From Candidatus Dojkabacteria bacterium (GTDB lineage: Bacteria > Patescibacteriota > Dojkabacteria > SC72 > JAHDCA01), in assembly GCA_030583845.1 (NCBI GenBank), contig CP129478.1, positions 587,686 through 651,685 on the forward strand: 64,000 nt of DNA. The letters are read 5' to 3'. The position numbers were made by a program, and so were the translations under genes. The notes beneath the pieces are model-generated. The model was not told the origin of the DNA, made no database searches, and saw only the letters and a program-made list of their open reading frames with translations. Each line of letters begins with the position of its first letter. The stretch's first letter is position 1. This document shows positions 5,027 through 42,126 of this stretch, piece after piece.

Positions 5027-5154
5027 AGAACAGTTAGTTACATTGGCAATTCATATGGCGATCATATATTTGCTGTCCAAGCTCCCGCTGAGGCTATATA
5101 ATCGCTTGTAGACTTTACCGCTGATGCGGGATCTAATCCATAATAAGGGGATAT

Positions 5155-6738: not shown

Positions 6739-6859
6739 TATGGGAAAAATGCACGATCCATTTTCTGGGTTTCTGGGAACAACTAAACAACCCGGATTTT
6801 AAAGTACACGAATTCGTGTACTTTAAAGATAGTGATAGTTATGAGGAGTAAAAAGTGTT

Positions 6860-8693: not shown

Positions 8694-8706
8694 CAAGAGA
8701 TACAAC

Positions 8707-11736: not shown

Positions 11737-11903
11737 AGGTTCAACTGAATCTATAGATTTGGACGTAGTAGCTAGATCGATGAATTGCAACCCTCTCTCT
11801 TAGGCGACTGATGAGCTATCCTTCCCACCTCCCCTCATCCCTCATTTTAGTCTATAATAGACTATCCACTGTCCCATATACATTACCTATAAACCATCAA
11901 ACA

Positions 11904-13064: not shown

Positions 13065-13134
13065 TCGCGGGTGTCGGCGAGCAGCTATCTGTTGGCAGCG
13101 AGAGCCGATGGACCCCCGGAGTAGCCTATAATTA

Positions 13135-13163
13135 TTGACAAAAGCTGATTTCTAGGGTATATT
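13135..13163 (+). promoter_or_regulatory. Candidate sigma70-like promoter for rpsO (TTGACA, 17-nt spacer, TATATT).
   Basis: Consensus -35 box at 13135-13140 and TATATT at 13158-13163, about 85 nt upstream of the rpsO ATG. Confidence 0.35.
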
Positions 13164-13250
13164 TTCTACGTTAATCTGTCCAATGATGAAATCTCATCTA
13201 AAGCACTGCTATTGTGCTATGTGCGAAATTTATGTTAGATTATAAGGAAT

Positions 13251-13514
13251 ATGTCACTTACCAGAGACGAGAAAAACCAGATTATTGCTAAGTATGCCCT
13301 CCACGAGGGTGACTCTGGTTCACCTGAAGTTCAGATTGCGCTCCTGAGCGAGAAGATCAACAAATTGAGCGAGCACCTAAAAGATCACAAGAAAGATAAC
13401 CATTCACGACGAGGATTGCTTCAGATGGTAGGTAAGCGCAGAAGGCTTATTGAGTATCTTAAGACATCCGATCCTGAGAGATATACAAAAATTGCGAAGG
13501 AACTAAAGCTCTAA
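13251..13514 (+). CDS. rpsO: 30S ribosomal protein S15.
   Basis: [36 protein letters not shown]...HSRRGLL is a canonical S15 sequence. Confidence 0.95.
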
Positions 13515-23217: not shown

Positions 23218-24399
23218 TTGAAGATGCTACAGCAATACCCGTTTCACCTGTTACCGGTGGTGATGAACCGGGCAGGTACGATGGGGTTCAGTGGACTGGT
23301 AGTAATGCGAGGGCAGAATGTGAAAGCTTATGTGATGGTAACTGTGTCGATCACTATAAGCCAGAGACTGAGGTTGGACGGTATTCAACTCCACAGTTCG
23401 CCTCAACTGCATGTGGGAATAATAGCAATTGTTATCCTGGTACTTGCGCCGTTGAGTGAGGCTTCTACTGGTGAATATGCAGCAATCTGTAACTTGTATC
23501 AATACACCGAGTGTGAAGTTTCCGATGAAATGTTTCAGGCTCCATCAGTGGTGAAGAGTGCGTACGCCCAAACCAACCCCGAATCCCAAGAGTTCCTCTT
23601 CGATCCATCAGCAGGCGTCTACTATGTGGGTGAAGCAGGTGTTTACCAGATCGAATATGAGGGTCAAACATATGAAGCAATTGTCGGAGAAGGTGATCAG
23701 AATGTAATACTGTATATCGACGAAAATGCAAATGGTACATACGATGAGGGTACGGACATTCAGATCTCAGTTAACCCATCGGAGCTAAATGTCGCCCAGA
23801 CCGCTGAGGCACACACATATGATTTGCAAGCTGGATTCAACTTTATCCACCTGCCATTTATCCCTGAAGATTACCCGATGGCATCTGACCTGTTGGAGTA
23901 TGTCAACAACGAGTATGGCGGAATTGCTTTCTCGATTGCCAAATTTGACGACACCTGGAAAGTAGTCGGTGCAAATGGTGGCGAGTTCAATGTAAATGAT
24001 TTCCAGCTCGTGCCAGGTGCTGGCTACCTGCTCAAAATAACTCAGGATACTGAGGTTACATTTACGGGGCGGGAGATCCTTTATGAAACTGAAGGCGATA
24101 CTGCGCCAGTATTCTTCGCACCAGGATGGAACTTGGTCGGTATCTACGGTAGTAATGCAGCTGTTTACTCGGCTGAATCCATGATTGACAGCCTAAACGA
24201 GTATGAAACGACAGATTTTACAGCGGTCAACGTCACACGATGGCCACCAGAGAAGGCACGGTATGAAGGATTGCAAAAGGAGATGGGTGAAGATGGAGAG
24301 TACGATGTATATGGCTTCGACTTCCCATTAAATCAGTATACTTCATACTTTGTGAGAATCACTGAAGGTACTGGTAATTGGGAGCCGGCGATGGAGTAG
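23218..24399 (+). CDS. Surface protein paralog 1, C-terminal part with the conserved ~200-aa C-terminal domain. It is probably the 3' portion of the same frameshifted gene.
   Basis: The C-terminus aligns with the C-terminus of 24782-27853: GFNFIHLPFIPEDYPMASDLLEYVNNEY...SIAKFDDTWKVVG...LVPGAGYLLK...PGWNLVGIYGS...YSAESMIDSLNE...TAVNVTRWPPEKARYEGLQKE...YGFDFPLNQYTSYFVRITEGTGNWEP. The real coding start is probably upstream by read-through from frame 3. Confidence 0.6.
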   Translation: MKMLQQYPFHLLPVVMNRAGTMGFSGLVVMRGQNVKAYVMVTVSITISQRLRLDGIQLHSSPQLHVGIIAIVILVLAPLSEASTGEYAAICNLYQYTECEVSDEMFQAPSVVKSAYAQTNPESQEFLFDPSAGVYYVGEAGVYQIEYEGQTYEAIVGEGDQNVILYIDENANGTYDEGTDIQISVNPSELNVAQTAEAHTYDLQAGFNFIHLPFIPEDYPMASDLLEYVNNEYGGIAFSIAKFDDTWKVVGANGGEFNVNDFQLVPGAGYLLKITQDTEVTFTGREILYETEGDTAPVFFAPGWNLVGIYGSNAAVYSAESMIDSLNEYETTDFTAVNVTRWPPEKARYEGLQKEMGEDGEYDVYGFDFPLNQYTSYFVRITEGTGNWEPAME

Positions 24400-24561: not shown

Positions 24562-24810
24562 ATGAATAAGAAGAAGTTATACGTAATAATTGGGATTATC
24601 GCACTTTCGCTGGGCATCGCGGCGGTCAGCTTCTGGTTTGTAAATAGCAAAGCTCCCGATGTTGTGAATGTGACCAATGTGACATCGTCATCCGCGACAA
24701 TCTCGTGGGTAAGCGATGAAGCCGAACCCGGCAAGGTAATCGTCAAACGGGGTAATTACCCATTTCCATTCCAGCCGCGTAATGCAGAGCACGCAGGTAT
24801 ATTTCGATGA
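24562..24810 (+). CDS. Surface protein paralog 2, N-terminal fragment (TM anchor plus start of the FN3/PAP-N-like domain). It is truncated by a frameshift and continues in 24782-27853.
   Basis: MNKKKLYVIIGIIALSLGIAAVSFWF then SSATISWVSDEAEPGKVIVKRGNY. The stop is created at GGT ATA TTT CGA TGA. Paralog 1 reads RAGFDDRD at the same point, and here FDDRD continues in the +1 frame. Confidence 0.6.
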   Translation: MNKKKLYVIIGIIALSLGIAAVSFWFVNSKAPDVVNVTNVTSSSATISWVSDEAEPGKVIVKRGNYPFPFQPRNAEHAGIFR

Positions 24811-27800
24811 TAGAGATGTAGCCGAGTGGGAGGTGAATAATGCAAGCAGTGAAAGCGCATCTGTTGAATTACCAGACCTGACCGACGACGAGATCGGACT
24901 ATACTATACCCATCATGTCACTGTAGTCGGTCTTGAGCCCGATACAAAGTATGACTTTATGGTTGGCACTGGCAATTTCTTTTACAGAGCAACCGACCAT
25001 GATGGTGCAAATGAATTTACCACAGCCGCAATAGCCGACGAGATTGATACACCGGACCCTGCCTACGGCAAGATAGTGGCAACCGGTGAGACCATGTCTG
25101 ACCTGATCCCAGTCGTCGATGCAAATGTTTACTTCTATGTTGAGAATTCGTTTGGAGATGTTCTCACCAATAGGATCTCAGCAACATTAAATGATGAGGG
25201 CTCATGGTATCTCGACCTCAATACACTGTATGACAGTGAGGGAGAGGTATTCTTCTCAACTATCCCGGAAGAGGAGACAGAGCTCTACAAAGAGGTTGTT
25301 GAAGTTCATGTCCCAAGTGGTGATATCTACATGAAGCGAATCTCGCCTTCAGAGGACACTCCGGCTGAAGATATGCTGCTAATTGAAGATTATAAGGTTG
25401 AGAAAGCAATTGAAGGTGAACCCCCATTAAGTGGACTAGCATCATCCGCATATGCATGGGATCTTACCTGTCCAAATGGTAAAAAATTGCATGCTGATGC
25501 AGCTGATGAAGCCAGCTTTATAGCCGTATATGGCGCATCTCAAGCCCAATCGAAGTGGGAGCAGGAGGCAAGCGGCTACTGTGGCGACCCGAACACCCCG
25601 AGCTGGCAAGAGGGCCAGCCTACTGTACAGCTTACCGACGAAGTCTGCGCTGTAACCTATACTGAGACAGGCGCATTTGGCTCTAACGATGGCTGTGAGT
25701 ATAACTGTGTAGGTATGGGGCATAGAACCATAGGTGGTGATTGTAAGAATGAATGGGGTAATGGCTCCTACTGCCAGAAGAAAGATCCAAACTGTGGAAC
25801 TGTGTGCGTAGGTGGTGAAGTATGTAAGCAGGGAGATTTCTGTATTTCTGGTGATTATCAGTGCTGCACTGCAGGATGTAATGTGAGAGGCTCCGAGGGT
25901 GGTAGCTCAGGCTCTGGAAATGGGTCTGGTACTCCTACCAATCCATCTGTGTGCCCTAACAAGAAGCCTGACAATGCAACTGAGAGGTGTGGTGAAGATA
26001 ATGTCTGTAATACTGGTGAGTGGTGTGGAGACTTGAATGGTGTTAGCTGTAAGTGCGGTGAAGGGACTGTCGAGTGTGGGATGGTGTGTACACAGTCGAT
26101 CTCCGAAGGCAAGGTAGCTGTAAAAGTATGTTGCCTGTATCATGGTGTGCCATCGCTATTGACGAACTATACAGGGGAATGTCCAATAGGCTGGCAAGAG
26201 GGAACTCAGAACCAATGCAAGACAACGGCGGGTACGTTGCCAACAGAGCCTGTGTGTTGTAAACCTCCAAGTGGCGAGGATATATGGATGTATACTCCAT
26301 CGGGACAGTGTGAAGCGCCACTGGTTTCATCAACTTGTCCAGCCAAGCCTAAGCCTGTACCTCTGCCAATCAATCAATCAACTCCTGCTCCAGTCGTGAC
26401 AAGCGGCAGTGAGTATACAAACACATGCACTGTCGAGCCTAATCAGAGATGTGGTGATTGTAAAGGGCAGGTAGGTGAGGCAAATGGCATAACTTATATG
26501 TGTACAGATATTGGAGCCGGTAGCTTCTTATATTGGTGGAAAGCTGTTGTGCCTGCTGGTGAGAGATGTCCTGATGGAAATGAGTGTATATGTGTAACTA
26601 GAGGCGGTGATGGTTCGATCGAACATTACTCTGGTGACCACAATTGCAATTCTTTAGCGCAGCCTGCTGGATCGCTTACTCCGATAGGTAACAACCAGCA
26701 GTGTCCCGCGGACAGCAACGGATGCTTCTGTGATACTCAAAATGGATACATATATCCTGGCTCATGGTGTGGATATGCCGTCTCATGTGACGCCAATAAC
26801 GTCGGAAGCGTGTGTAATAACGATGGCACAACATGTGAATTCACTGAAGGACAAACGGCTACATATACTACGTTAGGTGGAGATACCAAGACTATGCCGT
26901 GGGATGAATGTCAAAATACCCCTGAGTGTATCAACGGCTATCCACAAGTTCGTTCAGGTGAATATACATGCACTGGTCCGACAGCTTCATCTTTGGACAA
27001 CGGGTCTGACCTCATCTCAGAAGCTAGCACAGCTGTGCTTGGTGCGGGAACGGGTAGGTCGGTCAAAGTGTCTCCTCAAAACAACGCTGTAGCTATAGAT
27101 GATAGTGGAATATATTGTACCGCTGTCGATGCTCAGGAGTACTGCTTCGAATTAACCGATGCAGCAGAAAATATCCTTTACGCTGATCTAAACGGTAATA
27201 ATACCTACGAAGAAGGTACTGATTTACTGGTCTCTCAGGATGGTAGAGAGCTTGAGCTCCAACAGCAAAATACCACCTTCGACTACCAGATGGTGAAAGG
27301 ATTCAATTTCGTCTCGTTCCCATTTGTTAACGCAAGCTATATGGCTACAGCTTCTGATCTACTGACCTATCTGAATTCCGAATATAGCAATGGTTTCTAC
27401 TCCATCGCGAAATTTGAAGCCGGTCGTTGGAGAATTGTTGGGAATAGAGAAGGCGACAACTATGGCTCAGAGGACTTCCCATTGGTTCCAGGAGAGGGAT
27501 ACCTGTTTAAAGCCAATCTTGACATCTTAATTTCATTAAGTGGTCAGCGAATTACAGAGCCAGTCCCAGTGTATATAGCAACAGGCTGGAACCTAATCGG
27601 TGTTAATAGCGGTAGCGATGAATCCAAATACACAGCTGAAAGCCTAATTGACGACGTTAACTCAACCGAGGGACTCACCGCAGTGAACCTATCGCGCTGG
27701 TCAACCAGCAAAGCCCGCTACGAAGGCCTACAGAAAGAAGATGTTGATGGCACTGCACAGGTTTATGGTTTCGACTTCCCGGTCGACAACCGTAGCTCAT

Positions 27801-27853
27801 ACTTCTTGAGAATCGTTGAAGGTGAGGGACTTTGGACACCCGACGCACAATAG
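24782..27853 (+). CDS. Surface protein paralog 2, main part. It has the rest of the FN3/PAP-N-like domain, a ~550-aa Cys-rich region (more than 60 Cys) and the conserved C-terminal domain.
   Basis: YYTHHVTVVGLEPDTKYDFMVGTGNFFY completes the domain. Cys-rich repeats read CxxGxxC...CC. The C-terminus is GFNFVSFPFVNASYMATASDLLTYLNSEY...GWNLIGVNSGS...KARYEGLQKE...YGFDFPVDNRSSYFLRIVEGEGLWTP. Confidence 0.65.
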   Translation: MQSTQVYFDDRDVAEWEVNNASSESASVELPDLTDDEIGLYYTHHVTVVGLEPDTKYDFMVGTGNFFYRATDHDGANEFTTAAIADEIDTPDPAYGKIVATGETMSDLIPVVDANVYFYVENSFGDVLTNRISATLNDEGSWYLDLNTLYDSEGEVFFSTIPEEETELYKEVVEVHVPSGDIYMKRISPSEDTPAEDMLLIEDYKVEKAIEGEPPLSGLASSAYAWDLTCPNGKKLHADAADEASFIAVYGASQAQSKWEQEASGYCGDPNTPSWQEGQPTVQLTDEVCAVTYTETGAFGSNDGCEYNCVGMGHRTIGGDCKNEWGNGSYCQKKDPNCGTVCVGGEVCKQGDFCISGDYQCCTAGCNVRGSEGGSSGSGNGSGTPTNPSVCPNKKPDNATERCGEDNVCNTGEWCGDLNGVSCKCGEGTVECGMVCTQSISEGKVAVKVCCLYHGVPSLLTNYTGECPIGWQEGTQNQCKTTAGTLPTEPVCCKPPSGEDIWMYTPSGQCEAPLVSSTCPAKPKPVPLPINQSTPAPVVTSGSEYTNTCTVEPNQRCGDCKGQVGEANGITYMCTDIGAGSFLYWWKAVVPAGERCPDGNECICVTRGGDGSIEHYSGDHNCNSLAQPAGSLTPIGNNQQCPADSNGCFCDTQNGYIYPGSWCGYAVSCDANNVGSVCNNDGTTCEFTEGQTATYTTLGGDTKTMPWDECQNTPECINGYPQVRSGEYTCTGPTASSLDNGSDLISEASTAVLGAGTGRSVKVSPQNNAVAIDDSGIYCTAVDAQEYCFELTDAAENILYADLNGNNTYEEGTDLLVSQDGRELELQQQNTTFDYQMVKGFNFVSFPFVNASYMATASDLLTYLNSEYSNGFYSIAKFEAGRWRIVGNREGDNYGSEDFPLVPGEGYLFKANLDILISLSGQRITEPVPVYIATGWNLIGVNSGSDESKYTAESLIDDVNSTEGLTAVNLSRWSTSKARYEGLQKEDVDGTAQVYGFDFPVDNRSSYFLRIVEGEGLWTPDAQ

Positions 27854-27896: not shown

Positions 27897-28232
27897 ATGT
27901 TAAATCAGATTCCCGCAGAATTTTGGATGGTTATTATCTCAGTCCTGACACTGTTCCTGGTATTTATCATGTACCAAATTGCCAACCTGTTGAAGGAAAG
28001 CACCAAGACTATGGCCGAGACAACCAAAGTTGTTACAGAGCTCCAGGATACAGTGAAGAAAGCCAATCTAGTGCTAGAGGATGCAGCAGAAGTTGTCTCA
28101 ATGACAAAAACCACTGTCGAAGAGGTACAGGATAACGTGGTGACTCCAGTCATTAAGATAGCTTCGATCATCGGTATGGTCTCAGATATTGTAGATAGCT
28201 TCACTGGCGGGTTCAAGGGCACCAAGGAGTAG
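27897..28232 (+). CDS. Small membrane-anchored protein, DUF948-like.
   Basis: N-terminal TM WMVIISVLTLFLVFIMYQIANLL followed by a charged coiled-coil-like region. Confidence 0.5.
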   Translation: MLNQIPAEFWMVIISVLTLFLVFIMYQIANLLKESTKTMAETTKVVTELQDTVKKANLVLEDAAEVVSMTKTTVEEVQDNVVTPVIKIASIIGMVSDIVDSFTGGFKGTKE

Positions 28233-30337: not shown

Positions 30338-31864
30338 ATGTTGAAACTCGATAAAAGCAATTCACTATTTTTTCTGTTGGGCATCTTTGCACTGCTTTTT
30401 CTCGGCTATGTAGCCCTTTTCTATGAAAGCGATGCTTTTTATAGCGATGCGAAAGCCCCGGCAGAAGCATCCACAAGTAGCGAAGAGGCTGGTGGGTCAC
30501 AGGAAGTAGTGTTGGTGGGAAATACGGTCGGAGAAAATGTGGAAGTCCCAGAGATCACCGAAGAGCAGTATCGTCTTGTAAAAGAGCTAGTAATTGCAGC
30601 CGAGCCTTCACTCGCGAGCATGAGCAATCTGGATGAGGTTATTCGGGAGCCATATCTGGCTCAAAATATTGCTAGCCTGATGGAGCAGGTGGAAGAAAAT
30701 GATCTGACAGTGACACAGGTTCGAGCATCAGTACGTGGTGCTGGTACTGGGGATTTTAGCCCGACCGGTGAAGATTGCGCGGCAGGCGCGAAGGTGATTT
30801 TGATGGATCCGGCCTGTTATATTACCGAAGAAAACACCTCAATTAACGAGAATCTAGGTAACTATGTAGGCTCAGGGTGTGACAATAACCCTGCAACCCC
30901 GTGCCAGGTGCGGGCCAGCTCAGTTATTGAGCCGTGGGAGATCAATGGCCCAGATCAGAACCAGGGCTACTCTGCTGGAACTGATGTACGAGGAAAGACC
31001 GAGAGTGAACGGATCCTGATTCAGAACAAGCAGATGAAAGATGGAGTCCTAGCCTATCACTCAGAGAGCGGTAGCTATTATGGCGATGCCTCGGATGCGG
31101 AGAAGTATGAGCAGTTCAAGCAGGTAAATATGGGCGTGGCAAATTTGCTACGTCCACAGCTAGCAAGGGAGGTTTCAGAAGACTCAGCTGATGCCAAGAG
31201 AGACTTTGCAGTAGAGATCTGCGCAGGTGGTGAAGAGGTGTGTGATCAGAACGAGAAGACATTGGCCAGATTCAAAGGTACCAACTCAGATGGTGATTAT
31301 CTTAGCCCTGCAAACAGCAATAAATTTGCCGAGGCCAGATATTTTGGGAAGGCGCTCCAGCCACCTACTGGTGAGGTCGAGACTGAGCTACGAAATGAAT
31401 GCGTTGATAACAGCTCTCCACAATATCGCAATATTAGTAAGACAGATCAGCTATGTCTTGGGTCACGCAGGGTTTCTGATGTGTATCATGGCGTAAAGCA
31501 GCTTGGCAATGAGATACTTTGCAGACTAAGGCCGAATGACAGCGATTGTCAGCTACAGGTTGTTACAGGCATCCAGGTCGGTTCGATGTTTGGCGATACT
31601 GAGTATTTTGTTGAAGGAATATCTAGCAACTATATGGCAGAAGCAATGGTTTCAGTGTATTCTTCCCCTGTTGATGACAGGAATGTGACTATGCTTAGAA
31701 CTCCGTGTACAATACGTATAGATTATTCTAAGATTGTTGACGTATACTGTTATATCAAGAATCAGAATGAGTATGCAGAGTTCTCAAGGCAGGCTGCAGA
31801 GATGACGCCCGGAGATTCATTCAAGTATGAAGCATATGGAAGCGCGCTTGAGGAGGAGTTTTAA
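30338..31864 (+). CDS. Secreted or membrane-anchored Cys-containing hypothetical protein.
   Basis: N-terminal hydrophobic anchor FFLLGIFALLFLGYVALF. About 14 Cys are scattered in the mature part. No recognisable catalytic motif was seen. Confidence 0.55.
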   Translation: MLKLDKSNSLFFLLGIFALLFLGYVALFYESDAFYSDAKAPAEASTSSEEAGGSQEVVLVGNTVGENVEVPEITEEQYRLVKELVIAAEPSLASMSNLDEVIREPYLAQNIASLMEQVEENDLTVTQVRASVRGAGTGDFSPTGEDCAAGAKVILMDPACYITEENTSINENLGNYVGSGCDNNPATPCQVRASSVIEPWEINGPDQNQGYSAGTDVRGKTESERILIQNKQMKDGVLAYHSESGSYYGDASDAEKYEQFKQVNMGVANLLRPQLAREVSEDSADAKRDFAVEICAGGEEVCDQNEKTLARFKGTNSDGDYLSPANSNKFAEARYFGKALQPPTGEVETELRNECVDNSSPQYRNISKTDQLCLGSRRVSDVYHGVKQLGNEILCRLRPNDSDCQLQVVTGIQVGSMFGDTEYFVEGISSNYMAEAMVSVYSSPVDDRNVTMLRTPCTIRIDYSKIVDVYCYIKNQNEYAEFSRQAAEMTPGDSFKYEAYGSALEEEF

Positions 31865-31882: not shown

Positions 31883-33361
31883 ATGGTAGATCGAATATAT
31901 AAGATATACAAATTCGCAGGAAAGATAGCTAGGTCGAGGGCTTTGAACAGTGCGCTGGTGCTTGTGGCGACATTCGGTCTAGGCTTGGAGGTCGTATCGC
32001 CAATTGTCTATGCACAAGACGGCGAAGGTAATGCAACCGTTGACGCAGGAGAGTCTTATACTTCTGGGACTGCTGTGATTGATACTCTGACAGAGTCAGA
32101 GGGTGTGACAGACAGTGCGAATCTGGCACAAAATCAGGCAACAGACTTCGCGATTGTTGCACTTTCGATTACATGTATGGAGTGTCTCGAGAATGCAGAT
32201 GATGTGGCTGCCAACCCAAATATCCATCCTTCTGCAAAGACAAGTCTACTGACCCTCGTTGATAATAACAATAGACAGATGCTTACAAATCCGCCTACAC
32301 AGAACCTTTACGCACATATGCAGACCCAGTGGATGCCAGGCGAGACATATGCAAATAGAAGCGTCTATGCTCAGTCTGGGTATGACTTACTCATATCGAC
32401 CGGCATTGATCAGCTCTGGGAAAATGTGAGAAATGTTGCCTACGTTATCTTCGTGCTAGTGCTTATAGTTGCCGGGTTTATGATGATGTTTAGGCAGAAA
32501 ATAGGTGGTCAACTGGCTGTGACGGTATTCAACACAATTCCTCAGGTCATAATATGCCTGATATTGGTAACATTCAGTTTCGCCATAGTCGGTTTAGTCT
32601 TAAATCTTAGCGCCACGCTTACAAATGTAGCTGCTGGTATTCTTGGCCTAGCTGATCCGACAGATGGTGTAACGGCCACGGGGCCGCTTTCAGTGTTTAG
32701 CGCATTTATTTCTGGGAATATTGTTACTGTTGGTGCGGCAAGTGTAACGACAATAGTAACTACAGTAGCAGGATCGATCTTGGCAAATAGTGGAATTGCA
32801 GCACTGGGTATAGCTGCCTCTCCATTGGCAGGTGGTACACTAGCTATTATAGGTCTTGTTGGCATCTTGATAGTGTTAGTTATCCTCGGAATCGTTCTGG
32901 TTGGATCAGTGAAGGTATGGATTACCCTTCTAAAGGCATATGTTGGTATACTTATCGATACAATATTGGCTCCACTCTATTTAACAATGTCCGCCTTGCC
33001 TGGCAGATCTCAGATGCGCGGAGATTGGTTTAGACGAATCCTCAAAAATGCATTAACTTTTACTGTTGTGTTTTTCTTCCTTAATCTTGCGGCTTTTGTA
33101 TTTAATGCAAACATTAATCTTGGATTTCCTACCTCTCTGGCAGAAGGTCAGACAGCTCCAGTTGGCTCTGGCCCCGTTTTGCTTGCGTGGCTGCTGAAAG
33201 GTGCAGTCTCGATCTATCTAGTATATGTAGCGGCTGAGGCACCTAAATTCCTTGAAGAGTTCTTGCCGCAGACTGGTGGGAAGAGTGTTGCAGGGGCACT
33301 GCAGTCAGCTGCTAAGGGTGCATTTGGCAAGCTTCCAATTGTCGGTGGCATGATGGGCTAA
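31883..33361 (+). CDS. Polytopic membrane protein with a VirB6/TrbL-like topology: a signal peptide, a ~170-aa extracytoplasmic domain, then 5-7 TM helices.
   Basis: Signal-like SALVLVATFGLGLEVVSPIVYAQ. Dense TM bundle from VAYVIFVLVLIVAGFMMMF onward, with Gly/Ala-rich helices. Confidence 0.6.
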   Translation: MVDRIYKIYKFAGKIARSRALNSALVLVATFGLGLEVVSPIVYAQDGEGNATVDAGESYTSGTAVIDTLTESEGVTDSANLAQNQATDFAIVALSITCMECLENADDVAANPNIHPSAKTSLLTLVDNNNRQMLTNPPTQNLYAHMQTQWMPGETYANRSVYAQSGYDLLISTGIDQLWENVRNVAYVIFVLVLIVAGFMMMFRQKIGGQLAVTVFNTIPQVIICLILVTFSFAIVGLVLNLSATLTNVAAGILGLADPTDGVTATGPLSVFSAFISGNIVTVGAASVTTIVTTVAGSILANSGIAALGIAASPLAGGTLAIIGLVGILIVLVILGIVLVGSVKVWITLLKAYVGILIDTILAPLYLTMSALPGRSQMRGDWFRRILKNALTFTVVFFFLNLAAFVFNANINLGFPTSLAEGQTAPVGSGPVLLAWLLKGAVSIYLVYVAAEAPKFLEEFLPQTGGKSVAGALQSAAKGAFGKLPIVGGMMG

Positions 33362-33437
33362 TGAGCTGTTTTTCGACCAATTCCCAAGCTGAGAGAATCA
33401 GGCCACTGTTCTGAAATAATTATGTGAGCATAACTTA

Positions 33438-36400
33438 ATGGCGCAAAGAAAAGACCTATACTCCAATTCGTTCTCCTCGGTGTCGAGCTTTATTTTGGGT
33501 AATAACAAGCCTAAGAAGCCTGTAAAACGCAAGCCGCCTAAGTATGATGGGATTGATTATAATGATGGTCTCGCAGGCGCGCTTGCAACCATGGCAGGTG
33601 CGCCTGGTGTGTTTCTGGGTGAATCAGCCATAAACTCGCTTAACTCCACCCTTGGAGACCCTTCTCTGATAGAGCTTTATATTGATAAAAGCGAGAAGCA
33701 AAAGATGCAGGGTCTGGATAAGAATGCTGGACGTATTAGGGTCCGTGGATCTGACCTTAACAAGTTTATACAGTCTCCAAGCTCATTTCTCGACAAGGCA
33801 CTTCAAGGTGCACGTGCTGAACGGAAGTGGGCACTTACGGTAGCGCTTCTTGGTGGTGGTGCAGAGGTAGCAAATACCTATATGTGGGCAAAGAAAAACA
33901 ACCTCAGCAATAGTGATGCAGCTCGGCTTGCAAGCTCGGTATGGGATCTGGATAAGAGTATTTACACCGATCAAGAAAGTCTTGGAATAATGACAGAAAC
34001 GGCGCTCCTTAAGAGTGGAGGCCGGTCGATCAAAGAGGCTGAGGAATTAAACGCCAAACTTGTGGCGAGCGTGGCAAAGCAGAAAGAGGGTAGGCAGACT
34101 GTATCACGTTTATGGACTGGAGCGGCATCCGATGTTTCTGATCACATAATGTCTGGTGCACTGTTTAAATCTCAAGATGAGTACTCAAAATTTCTCTTGG
34201 AGAAGGGTCTTAAAGATAAGGAACGAGACTTAGTCTTGAAGCTTAGAGCAGGTACACTTACGGAACCGGAGGAAGTTAGTTACGCCAATCGGCTTGAGAA
34301 TGATCTCAAGTCTGCCGCTGCAGCAGGATGGCCTAAAATTACGTCGCAGAAGACAAAGCTAGATGCTCTTGTTAGTCAGAGCATACCAGATCCGGCAGCT
34401 CGTGAGCGATTCTATCAAGAGTTTGCGAAAGAGTATACCTCAAGGTATGGAAAAGTTGATTATACGGCAACAGGCAACTTAACGAATTTCGGTGTCCGCG
34501 AGATGTTGAAGGATAATTATTGGGCGAAGGCACAGCTTTCGACTGGAGCTGATAAGGAGAAGTATCTGAGAACAATAGCAGCTGTAGATGTATTGCAGAG
34601 GACGAAATCGCCGGGTGATTATTCAAAGCCTGATTACGATAAAGCAAGAGAGGCTGTTACATCACTCAAAGGACAGCCAGGTGTATCTCAGTCGGATATA
34701 GATGGCCTCTTGGGACAGATAAATAAAGCGGAGTCAATGTACGCAAAACGGTATGTTAAGCATCGTGCGCATAATGAGGTTGAAACTAAGTGGCTAAAGC
34801 CACTTAATAATCCGATGATGTCCTATGAAAATGCTCCTGAGGCCAAGCTTTTGCTTGAGGCCAAGCTGAAAACAAGCAGATATAGTCTTATATCACGAGG
34901 TTTAGCAGTGGATGACCCACGGGTACAAGAGATCGATTATGCGTTGGAGACGTTAAAAAGTGGGTTCAACCCGTTTGGTGGTGGTCGTCCACGTATGGCA
35001 AATATGATAATGATGTACCGCTCAAGGGGTAGCATGGCAAATTTTGTACCTGGGCTGTTTACTGGTGCTTCCTATGCCGATGGTGTGATGTCACCAGGGG
35101 ATTGGGGAGGGATCACTATGAAATATAGGATGAAAGATCGTTGGGGGGTTGATAAGAACGGTAACCCGAAGTTACAGGTCGGAGAAGCTAAAGGATTTAT
35201 CCTGCAAGGCCGCTCGCACCTTCCAACTGCATATCAAGGGCTAGTGAACTACTACTATCTGACTCCAGGCAGTTTGATCAAGAGTACATTGTGGAATGGT
35301 GAGGGTCTTTACTACCTTGCAGAGCAACGAAGGCGCCGAGGGATTACCAAGATGCTTTCTGAGCTCGATCCCGATAAAATCCAGAATCCAACAGGCTCCC
35401 TGGCGAAGTACTTCGAAGCGTTGAAGGATGATGCGGGCAATGTAACGGGGCATAGGTTTATGTGGGAAAAGGTGGATGGGGATTTTCTTGGGATTCTGGA
35501 AGCGCTAAAAGATTCTGGCTACGCTGAACTATACAGGAAGTATGACAAAGTATTTAGAGGATATGAGTCTACTGTCGCGTGGGCGCATAGATTCGCAATG
35601 CCTGAAAGATTTTTCGGAAATAAGGGGGTAATCGGAGCGCAAAGACTTAAACTTCAAGGTAAAGTTGTACAATTCTTTGGTGCATTGTCAAAAAATAAAG
35701 AATGGAATGCTGCACTTAAGCTGTTCGGAGCAGGTGAGATCGGGCTCTATCAGCTGGTCGAGGCTGGTGTGAAGATTGTATTTGGCACAGTACTTAAGGC
35801 TCTCGGCCCAGTCGGTACCGTACTCTCATTTGTCATCACGGATGTAATTGTCTCAGCCCTTGTCAAAATAAGCAAACCAATCCTCGATATGAGCGTATTT
35901 GCCCTAATGGCAACGGTCGCTCTCTTCTTCCTACTTCTCTGTACAGTAATCTCAAGCCCATTCACTCTTGCCAACCGCCTCAAGACACATGCAGTCCAGC
36001 CGCCAGTCGAGGGAGTCGAGCTCGAGCCATTGCCAGGTGAATTCCCGGATGATCCAGATGCAGTAGTTATTGACCCAACCAAAGATGCGATCTGTCCAAT
36101 AAATGCAGGTGCAATCTGTACGCAGGGACCACGCGGCTCCTACTCACACGCCAGGATGGGTACATATGCAATCGATGTGAGCACAGGTGCAGGTCCATTC
36201 AGAGCGCCAACCGATGGTGTAGTTGTGAGTGTGAGATCGTCAAACTCTTGCCCATGGGGACCAAACCGTGGAGCAAATTATGGTGGATCTGTTGTTTTCC
36301 GATCGTCGGATAATATCTACTATGAAGTGATGCACGCAAATCCAACAGTAGGCACTGGTCCTGTTGAGCAGGGCACAGTGTTAGCGACAATGGCTTACGG

Positions 36401-36554
36401 ATTGCCACGAAGCGGGTGCTGGACTGGGGCACACTACCATATCGATACCTGCTTCGGCAGCCAGTCTGCTTGTGTAGCTCGAAGCCGAAGTGCCAGATGG
36501 CTTAACTCTAAAGATTGGTATAACGAGTTGAAATGTAATATCCGCGGATGTTAG
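33438..36554 (+). CDS. Large (1038 aa) protein with a ~760-aa N-terminal domain, an internal TM hairpin and a C-terminal M23 (LytM-type) peptidase domain.
   Basis: M23 motifs HARMGTYAIDV...GAGPFRAPTDGVVV (HxxxD and active-site region) and GAHYHID (HxH). TM segments at aa ~770-840 (IVFGTVLKALGPVGTVLSFVITDVIVSALV and VFALMATVALFFLLLCTVI). Confidence 0.7.
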   Translation: MAQRKDLYSNSFSSVSSFILGNNKPKKPVKRKPPKYDGIDYNDGLAGALATMAGAPGVFLGESAINSLNSTLGDPSLIELYIDKSEKQKMQGLDKNAGRIRVRGSDLNKFIQSPSSFLDKALQGARAERKWALTVALLGGGAEVANTYMWAKKNNLSNSDAARLASSVWDLDKSIYTDQESLGIMTETALLKSGGRSIKEAEELNAKLVASVAKQKEGRQTVSRLWTGAASDVSDHIMSGALFKSQDEYSKFLLEKGLKDKERDLVLKLRAGTLTEPEEVSYANRLENDLKSAAAAGWPKITSQKTKLDALVSQSIPDPAARERFYQEFAKEYTSRYGKVDYTATGNLTNFGVREMLKDNYWAKAQLSTGADKEKYLRTIAAVDVLQRTKSPGDYSKPDYDKAREAVTSLKGQPGVSQSDIDGLLGQINKAESMYAKRYVKHRAHNEVETKWLKPLNNPMMSYENAPEAKLLLEAKLKTSRYSLISRGLAVDDPRVQEIDYALETLKSGFNPFGGGRPRMANMIMMYRSRGSMANFVPGLFTGASYADGVMSPGDWGGITMKYRMKDRWGVDKNGNPKLQVGEAKGFILQGRSHLPTAYQGLVNYYYLTPGSLIKSTLWNGEGLYYLAEQRRRRGITKMLSELDPDKIQNPTGSLAKYFEALKDDAGNVTGHRFMWEKVDGDFLGILEALKDSGYAELYRKYDKVFRGYESTVAWAHRFAMPERFFGNKGVIGAQRLKLQGKVVQFFGALSKNKEWNAALKLFGAGEIGLYQLVEAGVKIVFGTVLKALGPVGTVLSFVITDVIVSALVKISKPILDMSVFALMATVALFFLLLCTVISSPFTLANRLKTHAVQPPVEGVELEPLPGEFPDDPDAVVIDPTKDAICPINAGAICTQGPRGSYSHARMGTYAIDVSTGAGPFRAPTDGVVVSVRSSNSCPWGPNRGANYGGSVVFRSSDNIYYEVMHANPTVGTGPVEQGTVLATMAYGLPRSGCWTGAHYHIDTCFGSQSACVARSRSARWLNSKDWYNELKCNIRGC

Positions 36555-36567
36555 TTAGGAATCAAAT

Positions 36568-37659
36568 ATGGACAAGCTGCTCAACATAATAAAAAAGAAT
36601 AAAGTCGTGGTGCTTGGAGCTCTAGGGCTGTTGCTGGTAATTGCTATTGCACTAATTGTTATGCAGCTAATTGGTGGTGAAGAGACAGAAATCCCGAAAG
36701 GGAGTGTTGACCAGCCTTTTACATATGAGACGGGCAAGCAGTTGGAGATACCGGAAACAGTTGAGTACACAAATTTCGACCCAGGTGATGATACGACTGC
36801 GCCAATTTACGAATTTGCACTTGAGAATAAAGTCGATCTTGTGAAATCGTTCCTGGGTAGCATCGGTAAACGCTCGATGGAGCTCGAGGAGTATGAGGAT
36901 GTTGTGTATTACTGGAGAGATGACCCGAGCGATGATTTCTATGTGGTTGAGTACAACGCGTTGACCGACCGTGTATTCTTTAGATTTGAGAGCGCTGTAG
37001 ATCCAGACCTGAATGCTGGTGGATATCTGAGCAGAGAGGATCTCGAACAGTATTTTACTGCTTTTGTTCATGAGTATTGGGATCAGTCGTACAGCTACAC
37101 TGATTTCAATGTGACTAGGGATGGATCGACTTATCGAATTGAGGCGAGCAGGCTGATTGGGAAGTATCCTTTGCACATCTCTGGCTTTGAAGAGTATTCG
37201 GATTATCTGGTTGTTGAAGATGATGGAGATATACTCGAGGGGCAGATCTATCTGATGAATTACGATCTCTCTACAGCACAGAATGTTGATCTTATTACGA
37301 CAGTTGGTCTCGGATCAGTGATCGGGCGAGATGATTATCCGAAGGATTTCTATCAATTGGAGCCTCAAGATCTTGATGGTACCTTATTATATGGTGAGCC
37401 ATACACACCTGCACAATCAGCAGGTGATCCTCCTCCAACGCCTGATGGTGAGATCCCAGAATTGACCGAGTGCACAGCTGAAGAGATATCGTTGGTGTAC
37501 CTCTACATGAGCGGTACATATCAGATGCTTACCCCAGCGTATAAGATCAGGTGTGCTGGAAATGTCGTCGTAGAAGGTAGGAGCTATAGAACAGAGGCGC
37601 TTGTTTTTGCCAATGCGATCGATCCGGAGCTTGTGTATGTGCCGGCAACGACGGAGTAG
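36568..37659 (+). CDS. Membrane-anchored extracytoplasmic hypothetical protein.
   Basis: N-terminal TM VVVLGALGLLLVIAIALIVMQLI. Acidic, aromatic-rich body with C-terminal Cys residues. Confidence 0.55.
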   Translation: MDKLLNIIKKNKVVVLGALGLLLVIAIALIVMQLIGGEETEIPKGSVDQPFTYETGKQLEIPETVEYTNFDPGDDTTAPIYEFALENKVDLVKSFLGSIGKRSMELEEYEDVVYYWRDDPSDDFYVVEYNALTDRVFFRFESAVDPDLNAGGYLSREDLEQYFTAFVHEYWDQSYSYTDFNVTRDGSTYRIEASRLIGKYPLHISGFEEYSDYLVVEDDGDILEGQIYLMNYDLSTAQNVDLITTVGLGSVIGRDDYPKDFYQLEPQDLDGTLLYGEPYTPAQSAGDPPPTPDGEIPELTECTAEEISLVYLYMSGTYQMLTPAYKIRCAGNVVVEGRSYRTEALVFANAIDPELVYVPATTE

Positions 37660-37779: not shown

Positions 37780-38976
37780 ATGAAAATTTTGACCAAGATT
37801 GTAAATATTCTGCTTGTTGTTGCCGCGTTTGTGGTGGTTGTGCCTCAGGTTCCAGGATATCAAGCTGTCAAAAGAGAAGATCTTGGTTTTGATGAAGGTC
37901 TCTCAAGCAAAGACGCTGCACTATATGCATTTCCAGGTAAGATATTAATAACACAGGTCGAAGCTCCAAATACCGCGATGGAATCTGACCCGGAATCATG
38001 GATCGATCTGCTCTACTACTACTACATCACAAGACTCGGTTTTGGCGACCTACCATACACCTATCTGGTTGATAAGTCGGGCACAGTGTACGAAGGCCGC
38101 TCGAATTATGAGGGAGTTGTGCCAGAGCTGCTGGATGCAGAAGGTGCTGTGCTAATTGGCTATCTATCAAATGGTGCCGATGTTACCTCTGCAGCAGCAG
38201 ATTCAATCAACGAGCTGGTCGAAGAGGTCTCATATAAATATGGAATCACTCGTGAAAATGTAGAGGCCGTTGACCTTGAAGTATCTCAGCAGACTGCTGA
38301 AGGTGAGCTGAGCAAGCTCGAGTATAAGAGTACTGATTCAATGTTTGCAGATGAGCTTGATCAGATCCTTTCAAAGGTTACATATTCCGATAGAGAAAAT
38401 TTGAGCTTTAAGGCAGCTGTCAGCGAGGTAAGCTTCGAAGAGAAGGTGCCGATCGGCGGGAAGCTAACTGTGAAATTCAAACTGAAGAATGATGGCGATA
38501 CTCCATGGTTTACACTGAACGATTTTGTCTATGTGGTCACATCAAGCAACGAAGATAGTCAATTTGCGGTAAATGGTGAGTGGGATAGCTTCGATACACC
38601 AACCCATGTTGAGGGCAAGACTGTGTTGCCTGGCGAGAGCGTAGATATTGAGTTCCAGATGGCAGCCAATACAATGCCTGGTGAGTACTCTGAGAGCTTC
38701 AAATTTAGCCGTACTGGTGGTAAAGATCTGCAGGGTGGTGAGTTTGAAGTTAAGTTCACAATCGAGCAGGGCGATGTCCAACTGATTGAGATCACAGAAA
38801 CTGAGACCGGTAATCTAAATGTCCGCAAAGACCCAAATCTTGGGGCACAGGTGGTTGGACAGGTTGATTCCGGCGCAATCTTTGTAGTTAAAGAATCGCA
38901 AAATAACTGGTATAAGATTGAATATGAGCCTGGCGCAGATGGCTGGGTGATCGGTAGATATATAAAGCGGCTTTGA
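37780..38976 (+). CDS. Secreted amidase_2/PGRP-like domain protein with a C-terminal bacterial SH3 (SH3b) domain. The catalytic Zn ligands are possibly substituted.
   Basis: Signal/TM ILLVVAAFVVVVP. LGFGDLPYTYLVDKSGTVYEGR resembles the amidase_2 GYHFLI..DG.I..GR block but lacks the His residues. The C-terminus TGNLNVRKDPNLGAQVVGQVDSGAIFVV...NNWYKIEY..GADGWVIGRYI has an SH3b signature. Confidence 0.55.
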   Translation: MKILTKIVNILLVVAAFVVVVPQVPGYQAVKREDLGFDEGLSSKDAALYAFPGKILITQVEAPNTAMESDPESWIDLLYYYYITRLGFGDLPYTYLVDKSGTVYEGRSNYEGVVPELLDAEGAVLIGYLSNGADVTSAAADSINELVEEVSYKYGITRENVEAVDLEVSQQTAEGELSKLEYKSTDSMFADELDQILSKVTYSDRENLSFKAAVSEVSFEEKVPIGGKLTVKFKLKNDGDTPWFTLNDFVYVVTSSNEDSQFAVNGEWDSFDTPTHVEGKTVLPGESVDIEFQMAANTMPGEYSESFKFSRTGGKDLQGGEFEVKFTIEQGDVQLIEITETETGNLNVRKDPNLGAQVVGQVDSGAIFVVKESQNNWYKIEYEPGADGWVIGRYIKRL

Positions 38977-41078: not shown

Positions 41079-41144
41079 CCCGACCACCCGACTACTTGCG
41101 AAGCAAGTGGGTCGGGCAAGTGGTCGGGTGGTCGGGCTAGTTTA
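41075..41144. repeat. Family A palindromic element with an internal duplication, shared by the convergent pcrA and rpfB-like genes (bidirectional terminator candidate).
   Basis: The left arm CTAGCCCGACCACCCGACTACTTGC pairs with GCAAGTGGTCGGGTGGTCGGGCTAG (1 mismatch). An extra GCAAGTGGGTCGGG copy sits in the loop. Both stop codons lie inside the element. Confidence 0.6.
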
Positions 41145-42126
41145 CCAGTCGTGTGCAGGCAGGCCAATGGTGTGCAGCACCACCTGAACGATAAATTGTG
41201 AGGGAGATTCTAAGCTGCTGATAACCATCCCAAATATTGGTACCGCCATATCCAGCGAAAGTCCTTTCGGAGAACTGCATTAAGCCTTTGTAGAGCCCTC
41301 CATTATTAGCACCTGCATAGCAGCCAGACTCACACCTCATCACAGATTTGAGCCAGTATCGTTCTGCATCGCTGCCAGTGATCTGGTCAATATAGCTATC
41401 CCACTGTACACAGCTGTTATTCAACCCTGGGACTGTGCTGAAATCAATTCTTTCTCTAGTTCCGACTTTGGTGATCTTGTTTACGACAGGTGTGACCATT
41501 TTCTGGTCAGTGACTTTCTCTTCAACCATCTGGCCATCATGGAATGTCCTTAAGATTGTTATCTCTTTCACACCATTCTGCCCTTCTTGTGTTACAAGTG
41601 ATGTGCCAACATACATGCTCGAGTCATTTACCTGCTCAGACCTGAATGGGACTATCTCTGTAACTGTCTCAAATGTTTTCTCAACTTTAACCAGTTTTAC
41701 GAGGAGGTTGTCGCTGATCTTAGTATCAAGATCTGGGGTGATAATATAGTCATCGACGTTGATCCCTAATGTTTTGACCACATCTCCGACAGTTGCTCCG
41801 TATATAAGCTCGGTAGTTACACCATCTACATTTTCTACTTTTACCATTACAATATTCTCTCCGTCGATAACTAGACGGTCATCATCCTCAAATTTGCTTG
41901 AGAAAGTGTGTGAGAAACGTTCGCTTGAGAGTTCTGATGCTCCGAGTACTGCCTGCTCATAAGCAGAAACAGAACGGCCTGTAGAAATAAAGCTGTGGAA
42001 AAGTGACGATAACACGAGAAAGGTCAAGACGTAGGCAGTAAAGGAAAAGATTCGCTTACTTCTTCTGCGTCTGTTTGAGGCTCTCAGGAGTCTACTATAA
42101 CTGCGATTGTGCAGCGGTATACTCAC
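41137..42126 (-). CDS. rpfB: Resuscitation-promoting factor RpfB-like protein: membrane anchor, DUF348-like region, G5 domain and a C-terminal Rpf-type transglycosylase-like domain.
   Basis: The C-terminal CESGCYAGANNGGLYKGLMQFSERTFAGYGG...HHWPAC fits the Rpf domain pattern (CESGGNW...GYYGGLQFS..TW...GG...W..C). The G5-like block is GQNGVKEITILRTFHDGQMVEEKVTDQKMVTPVVNKITKVGT. Confidence 0.7.
   Translation of the reverse strand: MSIPLHNRSYSRLLRASNRRRRSKRIFSFTAYVLTFLVLSSLFHSFISTGRSVSAYEQAVLGASELSSERFSHTFSSKFEDDDRLVIDGENIVMVKVENVDGVTTELIYGATVGDVVKTLGINVDDYIITPDLDTKISDNLLVKLVKVEKTFETVTEIVPFRSEQVNDSSMYVGTSLVTQEGQNGVKEITILRTFHDGQMVEEKVTDQKMVTPVVNKITKVGTRERIDFSTVPGLNNSCVQWDSYIDQITGSDAERYWLKSVMRCESGCYAGANNGGLYKGLMQFSERTFAGYGGTNIWDGYQQLRISLTIYRSGGAAHHWPACTRLVN

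Follow-up and report, generated by a model that had tools for sequence, protein, structure and literature searches.

A divergent VirB6-like membrane protein and an adjacent M23 peptidase in a conserved Dojkabacteria operon, probable envelope-spanning parts of a Patescibacteria T4SS

This study analyzed a 64-kb stretch of DNA (hereafter the window) from a 1.04-Mb Candidatus Dojkabacteria contig. Two open reading frames that the original prediction had singled out were confirmed at exactly the positions given for them, 31883-33361 (492 aa) and 33438-36554 (1038 aa), both on the + strand and with 77 nt between them. The NCBI annotation labels both products as "hypothetical protein". The two genes lie within an envelope operon of eight genes, the features of which are as follows.

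24782-27853, + strand: operon gene 1, a 1023-aa Cys-rich protein (50 Cys) with an fn3/PhoD_N-like beta-sandwich domain (weak match to Pfam Pur_ac_phosph_N)
27897-28232, + strand: small 111-aa protein combining a coiled coil with an N-terminal TM helix
28304-30214, + strand: 636-aa anchored protein with two fn3-type domains (Pfam fn3, 5.4e-10; Pur_ac_phosph_N, 5.6e-16)
30338-31864, + strand: 508-aa N-terminally anchored protein with 12 Cys, directly upstream of the VirB6-like gene
31883-33361, + strand: VirB6-like polytopic membrane protein, 492 aa
33438-35732, + strand: N-terminal ~765 aa of the 1038-aa protein, helical, Lys-rich and Cys-free
35733-35975, + strand: membrane-spanning region of the 1038-aa protein (residues ~766-846), its only hydrophobic segment according to the sequence and a hydropathy scan
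36093-36554, + strand: Cys-rich M23 (LytM-type) metallopeptidase domain of the 1038-aa protein (residues 886-1038), following a Pro/Asp-rich linker (847-885)
36568-37659, + strand: 363-aa N-terminally anchored protein, starting 14 nt past the M23 gene
37780-38976, + strand: 398-aa secreted or anchored protein with Ig-like and SH3_3 (cell-wall-binding) domains, the final operon gene before pcrA

The eight genes were collinear and orthologous in four further loci (L001-L004; 22-46% identity), flanked by rsmB/rsmE and pcrA. At all Dojkabacteria-type loci studied, namely the window, L001-L004 and L090, the 492-aa and 1038-aa genes were neighbors in the same order, and for this reason the pairing of the VirB6-like and M23 genes is no coincidence. 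In L008, a 956-aa gene of similar size, a putative counterpart, occupied the place of the M23 gene. The absence of an ATPase, a pilin, a relaxase and an integrase from the eight genes indicates that the operon is chromosomal rather than a mobile element, and it is vertically inherited. In line with the earlier remark that the window holds no ATPase, no gene for VirB4, VirB3, VirD4 or a pilin was found in the 64 kb; all four were also absent from the 10 kb on either side of the operon at the Dojkabacteria-type loci. Promoter and terminator scans gave counts at or below the shuffled expectation and did not reveal the operon boundaries.

Among the six neighbors of the pair, the 636-aa and 398-aa proteins had orthologues in L001-L004 at 30-43% and 32-46% identity, respectively, and the 111-aa and 363-aa proteins also had orthologues in these four loci. 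The 1023-aa protein, which had orthologues at the equivalent position in L001-L003, is probably a surface component, and the 508-aa protein had weak positional orthologues in L001 and L002. The 398-aa protein matched Pfam SH3_3 (7.1e-13), N_BRCA1_IG (2.1e-6) and a PHROG amidase C-terminal region (1.5e-10). The 363-aa and 508-aa proteins had no match in Pfam or PDB, and profile searches of PDB with their families were likewise empty, so that no VirB8-like assignment was possible. The 111-aa protein showed only faint matches, to DUF948 and ICE-TM; its candidacy as a VirB2-type pilin was rejected on an hhalign probability of 0.8% against T4SS pilins. An Amidase_2 protein was observed in L004.

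The 492-aa protein begins with a basic N-terminus and a hydrophobic stretch (residues ~20-44) that ends in VYAQD and resembles a signal peptide or anchor. Residues ~45-170 are helical and non-hydrophobic and were read as an extracytoplasmic domain, and the hydropathy scan placed at least five hydrophobic helices in a Gly/Ala-rich bundle at residues ~175-460. The AF2 model contained helices at 175-206, 209-230, 232-253, 314-361, 377-408 and 432-451. The signal peptide or anchor and the helix bundle had been described correctly in the original prediction, but the extracytoplasmic part comprises ~125 aa instead of ~170. A polytopic protein with at least five hydrophobic helices and a hydrophilic extracytoplasmic part has the topology of VirB6/TrbL.

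Single-sequence searches of Pfam, NCBIfam, PHROGs and PDB with the 492-aa and 1038-aa proteins yielded nothing usable; the sole results were a faint TrbC/VirB2 match (E 1e-4) and one PHROG of unknown function. Pfam TrbL (PF04610) matched one of 41 members of the VirB6-like family (E 0.0088) and did not match the window protein, and family profiles of 41 and 47 sequences retrieved neither VirB6 nor DotA from the PDB sequences. Although the sequence methods were silent, two independent programs identified DotA and TrwI/VirB6 as the best matches of the predicted structure, and TrwI chains occupied the top four places in Foldseek (probability 0.63-1.00). Homology of the 492-aa protein to a different transporter family was looked for, and none was found. 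The family comprised 131 homologues from Dojkabacteria and Microgenomates, none of which was annotated. The structural matches suggest that the 492-aa protein is a highly divergent polytopic membrane protein of the VirB6/DotA type.

The N-terminal ~765 residues of the 1038-aa protein had no match in Pfam, PDB, PHROG or NCBIfam; the N-terminus itself carries a motif conserved in the family (consensus MAxxKxxxYxxALxSIFDFIF). In the hydropathy scan, the sequence up to residue 766 was free of signal peptides and TM segments; one or two weaker hydrophobic helices and then a strong TM helix at ~819-846 came after it. A low-confidence AF2 model (3 sequences, pLDDT 40.6) contained helices at 770-787, 791-811 and 819-847. 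Among 74 family members, the median number of Cys was 0 before the TM segment versus 8 after it, and the charge about this segment was +4 just before it versus -6. This partition suggests that the ~765-aa part is cytoplasmic and that the M23 domain is extracytoplasmic.

The strings HARMGTYAIDV, APTDGVVV and GAHYHID, which had been quoted in favor of a LytM/M23 domain, were all present within residues 904-1003, and the domain assignment held. Pfam Peptidase_M23 matched the window protein at an E of 0.0037 (17.9 bits, below the 28.7-bit gathering cut-off) and six of seven syntenic orthologues, the best at an E of 5.4e-8. The profile of the 74-sequence family retrieved M23 peptidases from PDB (E 2.6e-12), including LytM (3.7e-7) and ShyA (3e-7), and its top 14 matches were all M23. 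Judged by its sequence, the M23 domain is genuine but divergent. Pfam and NCBIfam gave no match to SLT/lysozyme, CHAP or NlpC/P60 domains in the 1038-aa protein. An exhaustive HMMER search confined the M23 family to Dojkabacteria-type genomes (~180 clusters at 50% identity), and a word-indexed homologue search with a 7-orthologue profile returned the same three proteins only.

The catalytic residues were conserved in this family: D913, H966 and H999 in 74/74 members and H1001 in 73/74, which gives the HxH motif and the additional catalytic His. The canonical HxxxD zinc motif was absent, with position 4 before the Asp being T909 in the window protein and a His in only 3/74 members. However, a conserved "SH" His (H904 in the window) stood 5-11 residues ahead of D913 in 72 of the 74, and the HMMER alignment, which spans a 5-residue insertion, pairs H904 with the canonical His of 9gy1. 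The alignment indicates that H904 is probably the functional equivalent of the canonical His in a non-canonical spacing (Hx5-11D). Six Cys were kept in at least 69 members. The domain is predicted to be catalytically competent.

The homologues from Microgenomates were located in T4SS clusters with pilin, PrgI/VirB3, TrsD-like and VirB4 genes. The relationship between the Dojkabacteria and Microgenomates VirB6-like families was evident in hhalign (probability 100%, E 3e-38). The homologues P0112, P0114, P0116 and P0119 adjoin arrays of 5-8 PF18895 T4SS pilins together with PrgI, TraC-like and VirB4 genes, and in 33 of the 42 Microgenomates loci with a full upstream flank the VirB6-like member lay upstream of virB4 (median 4.2 kb). 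Directly downstream of virB4, 45 Microgenomates loci encoded proteins with a Cys-free N-terminal part, a TM segment and a Cys-rich C-terminal part, which were related to the M23 family in hhalign (97.5%, E 8e-12); Pfam M23 is recorded on those of L006 and L007. The N-terminal, middle and pre-TM segments of the M23 family had no detectable Microgenomates counterpart, and hhalign detected no relationship between the other six operon families and the Microgenomates T4SS cluster proteins, the detectable kinship being limited to the VirB6-like family and the M23 domain. A VirB4 search of the genome contigs identified Microgenomates loci only. The proposal of a VirB6-like protein beside a membrane-anchored wall peptidase gained support from the structural matches, the M23 homology with its conserved catalytic residues and these T4SS-linked relatives.

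The T4SS of Patescibacteria is an essential, relaxase-less system with pilins that is akin to those of Gram-positive bacteria; the peptidase and lysozyme genes downstream of its virB4 are essential as well (PMC10633639, PMC12102498). A published survey described VirB6 as "scarce" in Microgenomatia, "suggesting extreme sequence divergence", and as "scarce or absent" in whole classes, which was also ascribed to extreme divergence; in a published table, two Dojkabacteria assemblies are VirB4-positive. On the basis of these findings, we consider it likely that the products of both genes span the envelope as parts of the Patescibacteria (CPR) T4SS, in a gene arrangement specific to Dojkabacteria, and the locus is most likely a divergent variant of the system already described (PMC10633639, PMC12102498). 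The link of the operon to a T4SS ATPase is drawn from other lineages and from the published table.

The machine would have the 492-aa protein as its platform or channel in the membrane, and an oligomer of this protein may bear an extracellular stalk or pilus, by analogy with VirB6 of R388. The 1038-aa protein would be anchored in the same membrane, with its N-terminal domain inside and the disulfide-rich M23 domain outside on a short Pro-rich tether. At the assembly site, the endopeptidase may cut the peptide cross-links of the cell's own peptidoglycan and allow the apparatus to cross the wall, which would be a VirB1/PrgK/CwlT role. The six neighbors, presumably co-transcribed, may contribute their fn3, Ig, SH3 and Cys-rich anchored proteins to the wall-associated or surface portion of the same structure, with the VirB4 ATPase and pilins encoded elsewhere in the genome and cooperating from a distant virB4 locus.

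[quoted passage not shown] The present analysis adds a divergent VirB6-type family for Dojkabacteria and Microgenomates and a recurrent partner peptidase, in which a predicted cytoplasmic domain and a TM segment precede an M23 domain bearing the atypical Hx5-11D zinc motif. It also reveals that in Dojkabacteria both genes are inherited within a conserved envelope operon of eight genes, separate from the ATPase. Taken together, these findings provide a concrete list of candidate extracellular components.

The content of the operon would also accommodate an autonomous envelope machine specific to Dojkabacteria, serving attachment, host-wall attack or surface-protein export, in which a co-opted VirB6-type channel and the M23 protein operate independently of VirB4. 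In such a machine, the cytoplasmic function could come from the ~765-aa predicted cytoplasmic domain of the M23 protein. The operon is self-contained, consisting always of the same eight genes and never having an ATPase, pilin or VirB3 gene within 10 kb; surface-type domains (fn3, Ig, SH3 and Cys-rich) predominate in it, six of its genes lack a counterpart in the Microgenomates T4SS clusters, and the M23 protein has a lineage-specific N-terminal domain. We nevertheless regard this explanation as doubtful. All other contexts found for the VirB6-like family are T4SS clusters, the published data include VirB4-positive Dojkabacteria assemblies, the operon encodes no energy source, and the distribution of T4SS genes over separate loci has precedents such as Rickettsia. 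In its strongest form, Dojkabacteria would have detached the VirB6 channel and M23 protein from VirB4 and rebuilt them with six lineage-specific envelope proteins as a separate, ATPase-independent surface organelle, a scenario we consider rather improbable. Such an organelle could be, for example, the host-attachment or feeding port of an episymbiont.

A module for cell-wall growth or division appears quite unlikely; in it, the M23 protein would be an endopeptidase with a housekeeping role or a regulator of the EnvC/NlpD type, and its polytopic partner would be an unrelated transporter or scaffold. The surroundings are conserved housekeeping genes (rsmB, rsmE, pcrA and an Rpf-like transglycosylase, then EF-G/EF-Tu and ribosomal genes), and wall-directed proteins occur in the form of the SH3 wall-binding protein of the operon and the Amidase_2 protein of L004. 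However, the M23 family retains invariant catalytic residues, unlike EnvC/NlpD, and its Cys-free N-terminal part is predicted to be cytoplasmic and not a periplasmic coiled coil; no ftsEX is present in the window. Its restriction to Dojkabacteria-type genomes also sets it apart from an EnvC-like division factor common to unrelated bacteria, and the best structural matches of its partner are T4SS proteins, with homologues that are T4SS-linked. The M23 protein had earlier been likened to hydrolases of Gram-positive conjugation systems and to tape-measure-associated M23 domains of phages. Gram-positive conjugative elements typically combine VirB6 with a wall hydrolase, and the 111-aa protein faintly matches Mycoplasma ICE TM proteins (E 0.002-0.008) and Rz-like spanins. 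Neither a conjugative element nor a phage was borne out as the origin, the operon being chromosomal and vertically inherited in a conserved position, and a remnant of an integrated element or prophage is effectively refuted by synteny: the genes occupy the same site between the same housekeeping genes although the orthologues are only 22-46% identical. The locus also lacks an integrase, a relaxase, a coupling protein, phage structural genes and any significant PHROG match; no tRNA gene was found as a possible integration site, and the GC content of the operon is uniform (0.46-0.50) and near the window range (0.40-0.50).

Regarded as probable T4SS parts, the two proteins were compared with known systems. 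The Patescibacteria/CPR T4SS (Southlakia epibionticum SEML1_0006-0019; the MPF_FATA-like CPR clade; Wang et al. 2023, PMC10633639; Quinonero-Coronel et al. 2025, PMC12102498) is likewise monoderm, chromosomal and relaxase-less and also combines a VirB6-type membrane protein with a peptidoglycan peptidase. Both components are essential in Southlakia, where the peptidase is encoded downstream of virB4. Clusters of this type, with VirB2-like pilin arrays and PrgI, TrsD-like and VirB4 genes, also house the Microgenomates homologues of the VirB6-like family. In Dojkabacteria, by contrast, the pair stands apart from virB4 and the pilin genes and is embedded in the eight-gene fn3/Ig/SH3/Cys-rich operon, and the VirB6-like family is recognized by neither the TrbL nor the TrbC profile of Pfam. 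VirB6/TrwI of R388 (PDB 7o3v, 8rt9) and DotA of Legionella Dot/Icm (PDB 9ngy) are also polytopic helical proteins with an extracytoplasmic helical part. The 492-aa protein differs from them in its 8-13% identity and lack of a sequence-profile match, in its monoderm host without a VirB5/VirB7/9/10 context and in the N-terminal position of its extracytoplasmic domain, after the signal peptide or anchor.

PrgK (pCF10), TcpG (pCW3), CwlT (ICEBs1) and TraG (pIP501) are similarly anchored peptidoglycan hydrolases encoded with T4SS channel genes, and PrgK likewise has a LytM-type domain. In contrast to these proteins, the 1038-aa protein has M23 as its sole catalytic module, with no SLT/lysozyme, CHAP or NlpC/P60 domain; its anchor is internal and preceded by the ~765-aa predicted cytoplasmic domain, and Hx5-11D replaces HxxxD. 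The catalytic domain is homologous to those of the M23 family members LytM, lysostaphin, ShyA and LytU (E 2.6e-12 to 3.7e-7), with the Asp, the HxH pair and the additional catalytic His all kept, whereas the first zinc-ligand His is shifted by the ~5-residue insertion and six to eight Cys are conserved.

The two open reading frames (ORFs) at 31883–33361 and 33438–36554, both on the plus strand, were present exactly as given in the original prediction, which read them as a VirB6/TrbL-like membrane protein adjoining a transmembrane (TM) M23 peptidase. Their products, of 492 and 1038 aa, were identical to NCBI QY318_02765 and QY318_02770, both of which are named 'hypothetical protein'. The pair is located in a chromosomal segment of Candidatus Dojkabacteria (WS6; Patescibacteria/CPR) on a 1,036,382-bp contig, inside a same-strand gene run spanning approximately 21.8 to 39.0 kb of the window. 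This run is flanked on one side by rsmB, rsmE, and a DUF4153 gene and on the other by pcrA/uvrD, an Rpf-like G5-transglycosylase gene, a TPR gene, fusA, tuf, and a ribosomal-protein operon, and the GC content is even over the operon region. The G5 and transglycosylase-like (Rpf-type) wall hydrolase gene (41137–42126, minus strand) retains its synteny beside pcrA in other Dojkabacteria genomes, which adds a second conserved wall-active gene to the vicinity of the operon.

The VirB6-like orthologues in four other genomes (loci L001–L004) exhibited only 31–38% identity to the window protein; the operon genes at these loci were in the same order and bounded by rsmB/rsmE (or DUF4153) and pcrA.

Genes of the Dojkabacteria operon, in order
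Gene 1: fn3-like protein, approximately 1000–1160 aa
Gene 2: TM/coiled-coil protein, approximately 90–110 aa
Gene 3: fn3 protein, approximately 550–640 aa
Gene 4: anchored protein, approximately 450–510 aa
Gene 5: VirB6-like protein
Gene 6: TM-M23 protein
Gene 7: anchored protein, approximately 320–377 aa
Gene 8: Ig and SH3_3 protein, approximately 392–415 aa

At L004, the large first protein was absent, and the 508-aa slot was filled by an Amidase_2 protein of 765 aa. The Dojkabacteria-type locus L090 contained genes 2–7 in operon order and a gene 8 with no recorded domain, and L008 contained the VirB6-like gene and the next two genes only. L004 also carried a tandem duplication of the VirB6-like gene and, within the cluster, a DsbA-like thioredoxin gene that is consistent with disulfide-rich extracytoplasmic components; together with the Amidase_2 protein, these peculiarities of L004 map to 5069–5932, 7684–9981, and 10001–13506. 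In the window, the 1023-aa protein (24782–27853) contains 50 Cys residues and lacks an N-terminal signal. Two ORFs upstream of its gene, 21782–23071 and 23218–24399, resemble the N-terminal piece (signal and fn3-like) and the C-terminal piece (sharing 43% identity with the end of the 1023-aa protein) of one orthologue, which in L001 and L003 is a single protein of approximately 1000–1160 aa, suggesting that the first operon gene was locally duplicated or split. Profile searches of the PDB revealed no solved relatives of the 363-aa and 508-aa operon families, and the 111-aa operon protein was ruled out as a pilin by hhalign against pilins of type IV secretion systems (T4SSs).

The 492-aa protein comprises a signal/anchor at residues ~20–44, a helical, non-hydrophobic region at residues ~45–170, and, at residues ~175–460, a bundle of hydrophobic helices rich in Gly and Ala. 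Its sole Pfam match was a sub-threshold one to TrbC/VirB2 (residues 160–237, E 1e-4), and NCBIfam, PHROGs, and PDB searches yielded no match. None of its 131 homologues carried a Pfam domain, profiles of 41 or 47 members found no solved relative, and PF04610 (TrbL/VirB6) matched one of 41 members (E 0.0088). Sequence methods thus assign the protein to no family, whereas the predicted structure does place it. In an independent Foldseek search with the AlphaFold2 model (41 sequences, mean pLDDT 75), TrwI chains occupied ranks 1–4 with probabilities of 0.63–1.00, matches that were weak by E-value (0.03–0.15) and TM-score (≤0.43). The first TM hairpin (window 32390–32600, residues ~170–240) weakly resembled VirB2-type pilins: Pfam TrbC matched it in 3/41 members (E 1e-4), and hhalign against 26 PF18895-type pilins from L005–L009 yielded E 3.7e-3 with the Dojkabacteria family and 3.6e-4 with that of Microgenomates. 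This likeness could be compositional, or it could point to common ancestry or to a site where pilins dock.

The most remote homologues detected (P0112, P0114, P0116, and P0119; E 1e-21 to 1e-25) were encoded in Microgenomates clusters holding 5–8 tandem PF18895 'T4SS_pilin' genes together with PrgI-like (VirB3), TraC/TrsD-like, and VirB4 ATPase genes; among these clusters, a Peptidase_M23 protein directly followed virB4 in L006 and L007 only. Alignment by hhalign (probability 100%, E 3e-38) confirmed that the Dojkabacteria and T4SS-cluster-linked proteins form one family. We then scanned one genome per GTDB species with the VirB4 of these clusters. The scan returned 80 loci, and every informatively named one belonged to Microgenomates (Woese-, Ames-, Roizman-, Shapiro-, and Levybacteria). 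Of the 42 virB4 loci whose 10-kb upstream flank was complete, 33 had an upstream ORF that the VirB6-like family HMM identified (median 4.2 kb, E 1e-37 to 1e-78). This linkage matters given that a survey of Patescibacteria T4SSs described VirB6 as 'scarce' in the class Microgenomatia, with extreme divergence as the suspected reason (PMC12102498); the family is the obvious candidate to fill the place of this subunit. The VirB4 genes of L006 (15632–19204) and L007 (12758–16504) are split by an intein (Intein_splicing and LAGLIDADG_3), which raises the VirB4 length to 1190–1248 aa.

Word-indexed searches with the 1038-aa protein revealed two relatives only. All Dojkabacteria-type loci examined contained a syntenic orthologue (in L001, 27% identical along its entire length), and an exhaustive HMMER search identified 180 cluster representatives of 750–1270 aa, all of the Dojkabacteria type. 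The predicted M23 domain was borne out by Pfam on the orthologues and by the family profile against the PDB, which located it in the C-terminal ~150 residues. PF01551 matched six of seven orthologues (best E 5.4e-8) and the window copy below the gathering score (E 0.0037), and a 74-sequence profile matched the solved M23 peptidases 9gy1 (E 2.6e-12), LytU (1e-9), LytM (3.7e-7), and ShyA (3e-7). Residues D913, H966, and H999 were invariant, and H1001 was conserved in 73/74 members. The canonical HxxxD His occurred in only 3/74, and an 'SH' His lay 5–11 residues ahead of the Asp in 72/74; HMMER pairs this His with the canonical one over a 5-residue insertion. Judged by these residues, the domain therefore looks catalytically competent, with a non-canonical Hx5-11D motif.

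Hydropathy revealed no N-terminal signal in the 1038-aa protein and a sole hydrophobic segment at residues 766–846, with a net charge of +4 before and −6 after it. The family has a median of 0 Cys in the N-terminal part (median length 708 aa) and 8, six of them conserved, in the C-terminal part (median ~200 aa). Because of the missing signal, the charge split, and the Cys partition, we infer that the N-terminus is inside and the C-terminus outside. The N-terminal ~765 aa had no detectable relative outside the family, and the AlphaFold model of the full protein, from three sequences, reached a pLDDT of only 40.6. Residues 1–21 (window 33438–33500; consensus MAxxKxxxYxxALxSIFDFIF, followed by a Lys/Pro-rich stretch) are the most conserved motif of this otherwise fast-evolving cytoplasmic domain and may be a peptide through which it docks to a partner in the cytoplasm.

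In 45 Microgenomates loci, virB4 is immediately followed by an ORF of ≥500 aa that shares the layout of the 1038-aa protein, with no Cys in the N-terminal part, TM segments in the interior, and Cys residues in the C-terminal part. The two families matched in hhalign (97.5% probability, E 8e-12), and segment-wise testing demonstrated homology for the M23 domain only. The peptidase and lysozyme genes that directly follow virB4 in Southlakia are essential (PMC12102498, citing PMC10633639).

The best-supported reading is that the pair probably constitutes the membrane channel or platform and the wall-opening enzyme of a Patescibacteria T4SS. The fn3, Ig, SH3, and Cys-rich operon proteins would be its wall or surface components, and the genes for VirB4, VirB3, and the pilins would lie at other sites in the genome; the latter proposal rests on two other Dojkabacteria assemblies listed as VirB4-positive (published Table S1) and the split T4SS loci known in other bacteria. 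The absence of an ATPase from the window, which the original prediction had noted, held, and no ATPase, VirB3, or pilin gene lay within 10 kb of the operon; the six other operon proteins had no hhalign match among Microgenomates T4SS cluster proteins. The main rival, that Dojkabacteria turned the channel protein and M23 peptidase into an autonomous surface machine, is rather unlikely. A housekeeping role in wall remodelling fits the data poorly and is improbable. The operon locus contained no integrase, relaxase, coupling protein, phage gene, or tRNA, which excludes a mobile element; a mobile-element remnant also fits poorly and is highly improbable.

Patescibacteria T4SSs as a kind have been described by Wang et al. 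2023 (PMC10633639) and Quinonero-Coronel et al. 2025 (PMC12102498) and reviewed (PMC12857230). What is new is the identification of an unannotated family as a candidate divergent VirB6-type subunit in Dojkabacteria and Microgenomates, the recurrence of the cytoplasmic-domain/TM/M23 architecture, the atypical M23 zinc motif, and the detached eight-gene operon in Dojkabacteria.

Among the VirB4-scan records (L010–L089), many whose virB4 locus is of the Microgenomates type carry the title 'uncultured Gammaproteobacteria bacterium'; a few others are named 'Bathyarchaeia archaeon', 'Clostridia', 'Alphaproteobacteria', or 'Nevskiaceae'. Such MAG titles are evidently mislabelled. The window also carries a Fic-domain gene at its start (511–1542) and a complete type I restriction-modification system (hsdM, hsdS, and hsdR; 5155–11736) with a T5orf172/MUG113-domain gene between hsdS and hsdR.
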